NCBI RefSeq assembly: GCF_041886205.1
Contig: NZ_CP169029.1
DNA from: Escherichia coli
GTDB lineage: Bacteria; Pseudomonadota; Gammaproteobacteria; Enterobacterales; Enterobacteriaceae
DNA: 64,000 bases
Reading direction: 5' to 3' (one strand)
Shown: positions 22,749 to 24,209 of the stretch, piece by piece
How positions within the stretch are numbered: the stretch's first letter is position 1
Layout: every line of letters starts with the position of its first letter
Translations under genes and position numbers: made by a program
The notes under the pieces: model-generated
The model's database searches: none
Seen by the model: the letters and a program-made list of their open reading frames with translations, nothing else
Told to the model about the DNA's origin: nothing

Positions 22749-22779
22749 TGCTTTTACTCTAAATAATTCAAGTTGCAGG

Positions 22780-22950
22780 AAGGCGGCAAGCGAGTGACAA
22801 ATTCGTCAGGAACGAATTTGCCCAGCCGCAGGCTGGCCTTCGGTGAGAGACATGGATGTCTCTCATTAATCCCCAGGAGCTTACATAAGTAAGTGACTGG
22901 GGTTAGCGAACGCAGACGCAGCACATGCAATTTAAAGTATGACGAGTATA
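22780..22950. repeat. ERIC/IRU element (with internal palindromic insertion) between panC and rpnC
   Basis: Contains ATCCCCAGGAGCTTACATAAGTAAGTGACTGGGGTTAGCG, matching the ERIC1R/ERIC2 primer core consensus as recalled. Confidence 0.8.
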
Positions 22951-23039
22951 ACTGGCGCTACGGCTGATGGCGCCAATTATTAATTTGCCCCACGTCATGG
23001 CGATGGCGTCTGTAAGCAATTATTCATAACGCAGACAAC

Positions 23040-23936
23040 TTAGTTAATCAGCCTATCAATCTCAGCAAGAGATAAATTTGTCATCTCTGCAACGTCTTCC
23101 CGAGACATCCCTTTACTCAGAAAACGCTGGGCGAATTCCTGACTTACTTCCTGTCTTCCCTGCTGAATCCCTTTCTCAATCCCTTTCTCTTCAAACCACT
23201 GCGCCAGCGTCATCATAGACTTCCCTCCCGTTTCCCTGTCTCTCAGCACACCATAAAACAAATCCGCTTGTTCAGTATGACCGCGTTGCAGCATATAGTT
23301 TTGCATGGCAACTAACTGACTTCCGCTAGTGTACCCTTCGTCAATCAGCGTGACCAGTTGCTCCAGCAATAACATTAAGTCGCGCTGGCGAATATGTTTT
23401 TGCAGTAGTTCGAGAATCGCAATCCGCCGATGTTGCATGATTTCGTCATCCGGTGTGATGGTGATATCCACCAGCGGGAAAGGACTGTTATAGACGCGTC
23501 GCGCCAGCTCCGGCGAGTAAAACATATCAAACCAGCACATTGATAGCGGATAAGGTGTGGTCTCGCCCTGATAAAACAGAATCGGCACTACCAGCGGTAG
23601 TTTGTCGTGATCCGCCTCCAGATGCCGATGCATGGCGGCTATAGAATAACGCATCATGCGAAAAGCCATTTTCTTATCCGGCTTGCTTTGGTGTTCAATC
23701 ACAACATGCAGATAACCGGGATTGCCCCGCATTTGCACGGAATAGAGCACGTCCGTGCTGTGTCCTTTCAGGCTCTCTTCAATGAAACTCCCCGACTCTA
23801 AATGAAGCGTGTTGAGGTCACAAAGTTCGCGTAATTCCACTGGCAAATGTATCTCCAGAAAGTCGCGAGCCGTCTCCGCATGCATTAAAAATTGTTTAAA
23901 TACCGCGTCATGCGGTGTAGTACTCGGTGCATCCAT
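23040..23936 (-). CDS. rpnC: Recombination-promoting nuclease RpnC (transposase_31 / PD-(D/E)XK family)
   Basis: 298-aa ORF, YadD-like sequence; located between panC and panD. Confidence 0.85.
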   Translation of the reverse strand: MDAPSTTPHDAVFKQFLMHAETARDFLEIHLPVELRELCDLNTLHLESGSFIEESLKGHSTDVLYSVQMRGNPGYLHVVIEHQSKPDKKMAFRMMRYSIAAMHRHLEADHDKLPLVVPILFYQGETTPYPLSMCWFDMFYSPELARRVYNSPFPLVDITITPDDEIMQHRRIAILELLQKHIRQRDLMLLLEQLVTLIDEGYTSGSQLVAMQNYMLQRGHTEQADLFYGVLRDRETGGKSMMTLAQWFEEKGIEKGIQQGRQEVSQEFAQRFLSKGMSREDVAEMTNLSLAEIDRLIN

Positions 23937-24209
23937 CTTCCCTGCCTTCCGTGTTGTCTTGCGTGAAGGCAGTATCCAGTCAAGGCGTGCTATCGTCAGC
24001 CACCTCTTTATTGTTTACCGAGCAGCGTTCAGAGAAATTTCAATTGGTTACAGGCGTTACATGGCACGCTTCGGCACGGTACGCAAACTGCTGACGCAAA
24101 TGCCGTCAGATGAGTAGACACTAAACAAAAATCGGGCAATACTGCGTGAGAATTTCCTCAAAGCAGGCATCGCCTGCTTCGTTAACGACAGGGTAGAAAG
24201 GTAGAAGTT

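Follow-up and report, generated by a model that had tools for sequence, protein, structure and literature searches.

Why do a nuclease gene and a dispersed repeat lie between panC and panD in this Escherichia coli chromosome, and did a single insertion bring them there at the expense of the pantothenate genes? The locus occupies positions 22749-24209 of what we call the window, the whole 64,000-nt stretch of contig NZ_CP169029.1 (GCF_041886205.1) that was analysed. We conclude, with a probability of about 0.9, that the panC-panD interval holds two independent features already described in E. coli, an rpnC cassette and a long ERIC. The first is a single-gene cassette that comprises rpnC, a terminator hairpin and some 180 bp of DNA upstream of the gene; it lies past the panC stop codon and ahead of the panD promoter. 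The second is placed at a TA four bases past the panC stop, upstream of the shared terminator, and is a strain polymorphism.

Much of this is known, including the position of rpnC between panC and panD, its patchy distribution, the toxin/antitoxin and defence biology of its product, and the existence of strain-variable ERICs with inserts. What we add concerns the junctions of the rpnC cassette, which are nucleotide-for-nucleotide common to the two types of the gene, and the ERIC insert, which we recognize as a cassette of wider occurrence. Anatomy, distribution and conservation come from the analysis presented here; nuclease activity, toxicity, antitoxin function and antiphage role are taken from the literature.

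Results

Layout of the Locus

Bases 22600-24300 are 100% identical to the corresponding DNA of E. coli strain LHM10-1, and the panC-rpnC-panD layout is found, over at least 80% of the query, in 4,951 of the 5,426 complete E. coli genomes. The features of the locus and its neighbors are the following.

21088-21885, plus strand: panB (open reading frame list and RefSeq annotation of the identical locus)
21897-22748, plus strand: panC, pantoate--beta-alanine ligase, with stop codon TAA at 22746-22748 (open reading frame and RefSeq annotation of the identical locus)
22753-22950, plus strand: long-form ERIC/IRU, 198 bp, with ends TtTACTC...GAGTATA
22953-22975, plus strand: G+C-rich hairpin followed by ATTATTAATT, between the convergent panC and rpnC genes (terminator scan and junction comparison)
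23040-23936, minus strand: rpnC (yadD), 298 aa
23040-23216, minus strand: rpnC-S, a predicted 58-aa antitoxin (MMTLAQWFEEKGIEKGIQQGRQE...), as an in-frame internal open reading frame ending at the rpnC stop
23155-23189, minus strand: 12-nt direct repeats encoding a variable 4-residue repeat (EKGI/EKGI...) (repeat scan)
23937-24114: rpnC-proximal portion of the spacer between rpnC and panD, part of the rpn cassette (alignment of filled loci)
24115-24209, plus strand: panD promoter-like site and leader; the site, at 24115-24143, consists of TAGACA, a 17-nt spacer and AATACT
24210-24590, plus strand: panD, aspartate 1-decarboxylase (open reading frame and RefSeq annotation)
24594-25823, minus strand: yadE (open reading frame list)

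The gene order and strands of panB, panC, rpnC and panD that the initial annotation had given are borne out by the open reading frames, and its gene coordinates are exact. Its description of the pantothenate genes as interrupted does not hold in a functional sense. The promoter block of panD is kept in all Enterobacteriaceae examined, and where rpn is missing it directly abuts or overlaps the end of panC, the panC stop codon TAG overlapping the -35 box TAGACA of the conserved block (...AAAATCGGGCAATACTGCC...). The same block is intact in the present locus, and since panD thus retains its own promoter, which rpn-less genomes also have, the rpnC cassette leaves the panBC and panD expression units intact. 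The hairpin at 22953-22975, judged by its sequence and its place, is probably a terminator common to panC and rpnC. The junction comparison found it at every rpn-containing locus, and it is missing from loci without rpn.

The rpnC Gene and Its Internal Reading Frame

Profile scores over the whole Transposase_31 domain place the rpnC product among the Rpn/YhgA-like nucleases. Its residues 7-207 match positions 1-201 of the 203 in the Pfam model PF04754 (Transposase_31, YhgA-like) with E = 5e-87, and it scores 298 bits against NCBIfam TIGR01784 (Rpn family recombination-promoting nuclease/putative transposase), for which the cut-off is 52.1. RefSeq names the gene at the identical locus "recombination-promoting nuclease RpnC," and the protein is 97% identical to K-12 RpnC from the same locus. 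A PDB sequence search with RpnC gave no match, and PADLOC (2023), which has no Rpn model, returned only marginal, unrelated matches.

The protein carries the motifs PHD (D10), STD (D62), IEHQ (E81 and Q83) and PDDE (residues 162-165). Compared by motif position and not by direct alignment with RpnA, these residues are the equivalents, at an offset of -1, of D11, D63, E82 and Q84 of RpnA, the catalytic residues that Kingston et al. (2017; PMC5350276) altered by mutation along with the PDDE motif, and the set expected of a PD-(D/E)XK enzyme is thereby present. The full-length product, RpnC-L, would accordingly be named a PD-(D/E)XK DNA endonuclease by likeness to its K-12 relatives: RpnA-D of K-12, overexpressed RpnC included, have Mg-dependent DNA endonuclease activity, are toxic and induce the SOS response (PMC5350276). 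Members of the Rpn family are able to promote RecA-independent recombination.

The 3′ end of the gene would also encode a second protein, RpnC-S, from an internal ribosome binding site and ATG. The predicted start is the ATG at 23216-23214, within the reading ATG ATG, and a Shine-Dalgarno sequence, GGGAGG, stands 7 nt ahead of it at 23229-23224. Each of the five K-12 rpn genes, rpnC among them, has been shown to yield an RpnS protein from an internal start site, and a 4-residue repeat of variable number, KGIE, has been described for Rpn (PMC10400941). In the present allele the number of EKGI repeats equals that of K-12, and it differs among the 11 orthologues extracted from Escherichia, Pseudocitrobacter and Salmonella. 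With an internal ribosome binding site and start, and a variable 4-residue repeat in the shared helix, the gene has the sequence features of an RpnL/RpnS intragenic toxin-antitoxin pair. Experiments with K-12 RpnC indicate that RpnC-S blocks the toxic nuclease through an interaction that is matched in repeat length (PMC10400941), and the family has been presented as toxin/intragenic-antitoxin nucleases, not transposons, with a proposed role in phage defence (Zhong 2023; PMC10400941); antiphage protection was demonstrated with a plasmid-borne Rpn, RpnP2, and not with RpnC (PMC10400941). By extrapolation from K-12 RpnC, the present allele may express RpnC-S, be toxic and serve in defence.

The locus agrees with K-12 rpnC (yadD, b0132) in its panC-panD position, its catalytic motifs, its internal Shine-Dalgarno sequence and ATG, and its EKGI repeat count. 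It differs in the last residues of RpnC (RLIN* here, KVINLI* in K-12), in a 22-bp indel just beyond the rpnC stop codon, and in the ERIC that lies between panC and the terminator. The C-terminal change and the indel are noted as points against a direct transfer of the K-12 results. The additional small "RpnC/YadD family" gene published for some strains, rpnC-Ss, which lies downstream there, is missing from the window.

rpnC as an Insertion between panC and panD

One genome per species was scanned with PanD, which yielded 80 loci, in each of which PanC, PanD and RpnC homologues were then located; the 77 loci that hold both panC and panD form the basis of the counts that follow. Ten of the 77 carry an rpn gene in the gap, and one more has a remnant. 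All six Escherichia representatives carry it (84-96% identity), as do two Pseudocitrobacter loci (61-63%) and Salmonella enterica subsp. diarizonae (57%); UBA5654, a metagenome-assembled Enterobacteriaceae genome, has a copy of 65% identity split in two pieces, and Salmonella arizonae retains a 418-bp remnant. The other 66 species, among them members of Citrobacter, Klebsiella, Raoultella, Enterobacter and Kluyvera, have no rpn and a panC-panD gap of 34-290 bp. The gene is thus not universal at this position, and the supposition that it is inserted relative to most Enterobacteriaceae proves correct. Since at rpn-less loci the panC stop overlaps the panD -35 box, rpnC is an insertion relative to the ground state of the family. 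The cassette is no recent arrival: an ancestor acquired it, and in Escherichia it is fixed.

The insertion does not have the form of an insertion sequence or transposon. A repeat scan of 22700-24250, together with the comparison of filled and rpn-less junctions, revealed around rpnC neither terminal inverted repeats nor the target-site duplication for which the initial annotation had proposed to look. Zhong et al. likewise reported that rpn genes are without such terminal features and are unlikely to be transposases (PMC10400941). Two candidate traces of the event were considered and set aside: similarity was too weak to support a relic of the former panC 3′ end on the panD side of the cassette, and a replacement of the PanC C-terminus by the insertion is at odds with rpn-less PanC ends (Pluralibacter ...VVELGQ), which resemble that of E. 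coli (...IVELA).

Did the gene enter this gap more than once? Kingston et al. (2017), from the patchy presence of rpnC between panC and panD in 32 genomes, favoured two introductions (PMC5350276 and its Text S1), which would correspond to an Escherichia type and a Salmonella/Pseudocitrobacter type. The two types of protein are only 57-65% identical, against 85-97% for PanC and PanD, and the distribution is indeed uneven, Citrobacter being without the gene and some Salmonella having it. The junctions, however, argue the other way. All filled loci have an identical hairpin directly after the panC stop and a homologous, cassette-specific spacer that aligns along its full length. From the rpn ATG to the panD ATG, as placed by tblastn start positions, this spacer measures 273-274 bp in Escherichia, Pseudocitrobacter and S. 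enterica subsp. diarizonae; in UBA5654 it aligns throughout, with an rpn start position that is uncertain since the gene is split. Two separate entries would have had to hit the same nucleotide with homologous flanks, which is conceivable only if insertion was strictly site-specific. We therefore regard a double entry as possible but doubtful. The shared junctions, as far as sequence can tell, favour a single origin, or else strictly site-specific insertion, over two random events; under a single origin, one ancestral insertion would have been followed by divergence, loss, and transfer by way of the flanking homology.

The Long ERIC Downstream of panC

The gap between panC and rpnC measures 73 bp in K-12 and 291 bp here, and the difference consists mainly of a 196-198-bp ERIC block that K-12 does not have. 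The element has the properties of an ERIC/IRU: an imperfect palindrome of about 127 bp with the core sequence once its insert is discounted, TA ends at a TA target, and dispersed intergenic copies. The ERIC2 primer sequence matches at 22887-22908 and ERIC1R at 22865-22886, with 1-2 mismatches and 0 matches expected by chance. The right-hand TA is kept, and the left-hand one is mutated to TT. A second copy lies in the window at about 43025-43147, and a query containing the ERIC finds a median of five places per E. coli genome.

Removal of 22798-22868, a segment of 71 nt, leaves exactly 127 bp, the canonical length, which folds as the classic long hairpin. The long ERIC differs from the canonical 127-bp form by this 71-nt cassette of three hairpins, inserted after GAGTGA. 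The initial annotation was right that an ERIC is present and that it contains an internal insertion; its extent of about 22780-22950 was too short, the true limits being 22753-22950, and the insert is made up of three hairpins where a single palindrome had been described. It had also called such a copy unusual, which is so for E. coli, where this form is rare; as a class, it had reportedly been noted by 1997. ERIC/IRU repeats of 127 bp are said to have been described by Hulton in 1991 and by Wilson and Sharp in 2006, and ERICs with internal inserts of about 70 bp were reportedly noted in 1997 by Sharp and by Cromie et al. Compared with the known ERIC/IRU repeats, the copy studied here has the same core, the same 127-bp length without the insert, TA ends, an intergenic site, and presence or absence from strain to strain; nothing essential differs, and it is a copy of the rare long form.

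An ERIC stands between panC and rpnC in 408 of the 5,426 complete E. coli genomes, mostly O157:H7/O55:H7 with scattered others. The empty site in K-12 reads ACT-TA-ACTGG; in E. albertii the identical TA is occupied by a plain 127-bp ERIC flanked by TA on each side, and Escherichia sp. E1V33 has a long-form ERIC there. These three observations (408 of 5,426 genomes, the short copy in E. albertii, the empty K-12 site) make the ERIC an old polymorphism independent of rpnC, and the tie between them that had been supposed is not upheld, since rpnC occurs throughout Escherichia. Because it lies upstream of the hairpin at 22953-22975, the ERIC would belong to the 3′ untranslated region of panBC. In Yersinia, ERICs located at the 3′ ends of genes reportedly change the stability of mRNAs (reviewed in PMC2229807), and by analogy this one might influence the panBC mRNA.

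A Three-Hairpin Cassette within and outside ERICs

The insert has the following parts.

22798-22868, plus strand: three-hairpin cassette, 71 nt, in the left ERIC arm, inserted between GAGTGA and ATCCCC
22798-22820, plus strand: cassette hairpin 1 (fold)
22822-22836, plus strand: cassette hairpin 2 (fold)
22842-22867, plus strand: cassette hairpin 3, with loop AUGGAU (fold)

A 73-bp query spanning it (22796-22868) is found in 615 of the 5,426 E. coli genomes (about 11%), in one copy each. In E. coli the cassette occurs within long ERICs at a minimum of three loci (at least panC-rpnC, the ybfA region and rpiA-argP). One ERIC of strain E2348/69 has a second, related cassette in its other arm, after GAGCGA and in the same orientation, so that both follow GAGYGA; in strain GN25, part of the long ERIC has been deleted. 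The long ERICs of Salmonella, Klebsiella aerogenes and Yersinia contain a homologous cassette at the same point, and compensatory changes are seen in all three hairpins.

The insert is not peculiar to ERICs: it is a conserved folded cassette found at GA^ sites across unrelated bacteria and phages. The exact 23-mer of hairpin 1 (CAAATTCGTCNGGAACGAATTTG) occurs in at least 120 metagenome contigs and in 10 viral contigs, and among the matches listed the cassette-bearing metagenome loci range in GC content from 39% to 69%. When the cassettes were aligned with MAFFT, RNAalifold recovered hairpin 1 only, because hairpins 2 and 3 were misaligned; conservation of the hairpins was scored instead by a structure-aware count against shuffled controls. 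Among the matches listed, 88 of 118 unique copies retained a GGA-containing loop closed by a last-hairpin stem of 5 bp or more, compared with 34 of 590 shuffled controls, and the 118 copies have 67 different stems at this position. The middle hairpin, in the same set of matches, has 39 different stems and keeps at least 5 bp in 93 of 118 copies, compared with 96 of 590 controls.

The cassette is without target duplication and without terminal inverted repeats. Of 133 copies among the matches listed, 119 are preceded on the 5′ side by GA and 12 by CA. Its recipient sites include ERIC arms, tRNA-derived, T-loop-like sequences (GGTTCGA^ATCC) and stop/start overlaps in phages. Cassettes at T-loop sites often lie one to three units downstream of a tRNA-Ser gene, at the loci that were checked for tRNA genes, and two such cases are truncated tandem tRNA copies. 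Two further palindromic repeat families host the cassette, and in each the empty sister copies define its borders. Removal of 71 nt exactly restores an IS91-like transposase open reading frame. We considered whether cassette-bearing T-loops might be functional split tRNAs and rejected the idea: among the matches listed, in silico removal yielded a tRNA in only 7 of 133, and at L117 and L098, the two that were looked at in detail, the 3′ end is degenerate and an intact copy of the tRNA is adjacent.

Within 4 kb of 133 cassette copies among the matches listed, we found no Y1 transposase or other recurrent protein gene, and apparent clusters of recurrent neighboring proteins turned out to be spurious open reading frames running through the cassette itself. 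A scan of 20 cassette-bearing metagenome loci against Rfam gave no match to the cassette, only to neighboring tRNA and sX4. PLSDB plasmid records, queried for the taxonomy of the soil-type cassette, returned enteric records only. Literature searches by sequence string and by keywords brought up nothing relevant to the cassette beyond the 1997 notes on ERIC inserts.

These copies bear on whether the 71-nt segment is a separate element at all, or whether the long ERIC is ancestral and the 127-bp ERICs are its deletion derivatives. ERICs do undergo internal deletions, as the partly deleted GN25 copy illustrates, and long forms occur in several genera. Yet the same cassette is found outside ERICs in unrelated hosts, where empty and filled sister copies give identical borders; its removal restores exactly 127 bp here and an intact reading frame in another host; and the E2348/69 ERIC has two related cassettes at different points, both after GAGYGA and on the same strand. 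An ancestral long form is therefore improbable, and insertion of a cassette into a 127-bp ERIC is the reading we prefer.

Discussion

The idea of rpnC as a domesticated transposase that, in inserting along with the neighboring ERIC, broke up the pantothenate operon draws on the name of its Pfam family (Transposase_31), on the absence of the gene from panC-panD in most Enterobacteriaceae and on the repeat element that adjoins it in the present strain, but is very improbable, given that rpnC has neither terminal inverted repeats nor a target duplication, that the ERIC has a TA target and a history of its own (the short ERIC of E. albertii) and is missing from K-12 and about 92% of rpnC-carrying E. 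coli genomes, that the conserved panD promoter is kept here and in rpn-less genomes alike, and that Rpn proteins have been argued not to be transposases (PMC10400941).

With the interval read as an rpnC cassette and an unrelated long ERIC, the 71-nt insert is the part that invites speculation. We suggest, tentatively, that it may belong to a widespread family of non-autonomous mobile cassettes of about 62-90 nt, apparently undescribed outside ERICs. Such a family would be marked by a near-invariant hairpin 1 (CAAATTCGUC-N-GGAACGAAUUUG), one or more co-varying middle hairpins and a last hairpin with the loop A(N)GGA(U). Its members would insert precisely after NGA or NCA, without duplication, in the manner of a minimal non-autonomous DNA element, and their hosts would span enterics, Xanthomonadales-like contigs, and other soil and aquatic bacteria.

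The palindrome-associated elements derived from IS200/IS605, and the Rickettsia RPEs found within genes, are small, non-autonomous, free of target duplication and specific for short sequences. By analogy, the cassette would resemble them in being without target duplication and terminal inverted repeats, in its end hairpins and constant 5′ flank, and in inserting inside genes, RNA genes and other repeats. It appears to differ from them in that hairpin 1 begins at the very first base, whereas the ends of IS200/IS605 have a 5′ guide segment, and in that it is much smaller (62-90 nt) than elements of the IS200/IS605 type and has no Y1 transposase within 4 kb. If the cassette is truly a new class of minimal mobile element, one would wish to learn which enzyme moves some 70 nt with such precision, leaving no footprint, and the annotation of interrupted genes would gain a useful marker.

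The loops of the cassette, C-N-GGA-A and CA(N)GGAUG, resemble the hairpins bound by CsrA/RsmA. It is a matter of speculation, by analogy, whether such GGA loops may turn transcribed cassettes into binding sites of the CsrA/RsmA type. In the ERIC/cassette region of the window, Rfam gave sub-threshold matches only: V_AS5 at 20 bits (threshold 96), and RsmV at 16 bits (threshold 100), the latter a weak hint of this likeness at E = 0.06. As for the strand that would be transcribed, the cassette has no consistent RNA-strand bias, since it is sense to panC and antisense to its neighbors at the other two E. coli loci.

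Distribution of the Cassette

The 71-nt insert that interrupts the left arm of the panC-rpnC ERIC in the window belongs to a conserved family of multi-hairpin cassettes, with copies on at least 120 contigs from metagenomes and on 10 from viruses.

22798-22868, window: 71-nt ERIC insert, a member of the family; further copies at comparison loci L091-L220
8530-8247, minus strand, L117: partial tRNAs in tandem, split by the cassette
1620-1283, minus strand, L098: another tandem array of partial tRNAs split by the cassette
L124, L150, L156, L166, L193, L199, L204 and others: copies of an IS91-like transposase gene bearing the cassette

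Outside ERIC, the cassette is hosted by tRNA T-loop-like sites, other palindromic repeats, the IS91-like transposase reading frame, and stop/start overlaps in phage. Its 5′ flank is GA in 119 of 133 copies and CA in another 12. We found no target duplication at the cassette copies and no recurrent neighbouring transposase within 4 kb of the 133, and the cassette gave no above-threshold Rfam match either in the window region or in 20 cassette-bearing metagenome loci.

In both tRNA-like arrays the unit consists of tRNA positions 1-58, the cassette, and then a degenerate 3′ part, with at least two such units in L098; an intact tRNA-Ser(GGA) or tRNA-Tyr(GTA) lies approximately 40 nt past the interrupted partial copies. 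Among copies of the IS91-like transposase gene (...FLRCGVLEHGFLRVVCEQCHAE/RLLAFSCKKRGFCPSCG...), at least 10, diverged from one another, are interrupted by the cassette at one shared codon. Reading through the cassette produces stop codons or a frameshift, and the reading frame is recovered once the 71 nt are taken out.

Cassettes in Other E. coli ERICs

1458-1735, L005: ERIC with two related cassettes, E. coli E2348/69, rpiA-argP spacer
about 1460-1565, L004: long ERIC with an internal deletion relative to L003, E. coli GN25, ybfA region

In the E2348/69 element, one cassette follows GAGTGA in the left arm and the other follows GAGCGA in the right arm, and since the two share an identical orientation, the insertion point appears to be specified by sequence and strand rather than by mirror symmetry. 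The right-arm cassette represents a second type, present as a single copy in 649 of 5,426 complete E. coli genomes. The GN25 deletion, which runs from mid-cassette into the right arm, is a palindrome-associated deletion.

The panC-panD Interval and Other Features of the Window

3582-4001, L020: 418-bp panC-panD gap, Salmonella enterica subsp. arizonae

The arizonae gap is what a deletion has left of the rpn cassette of Salmonella type: it keeps the hairpin that follows panC and the rpn-proximal spacer, and most of the rpn gene is lost. In the window, a 22-bp indel relative to K-12 (22998-23019) lies just 3′ of the rpnC stop codon, and RpnC ends in RLIN* (23040-23050) where the K-12 protein ends in KVINLI*. 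Other strains have a small extra gene, rpnC-Ss, at the same spot (L086, 531-764; L087, 2232-2441). Kingston et al. (PMC5350276 Text S1) name episodic diversifying selection on genes around panC-yadD-panD, along with neighbouring genome islands, as a possible driver of allele import.

43025-43147 (approximate), minus orientation, window: second ERIC copy, of canonical length
19154-20973, window: fimbrial-type ORFs, directly upstream of panB

A minus-strand ORF that we take to be lpdA (MSTEIKTQVVVLGAGPAGYSAAF...) starts at 42992, and the second ERIC sits a short way upstream of that start. The fimbrial locus is presumably yadC/yadK in K-12 nomenclature; at the matching position, the H28 locus (L087) carries an annotated "fimbrial-like adhesin."
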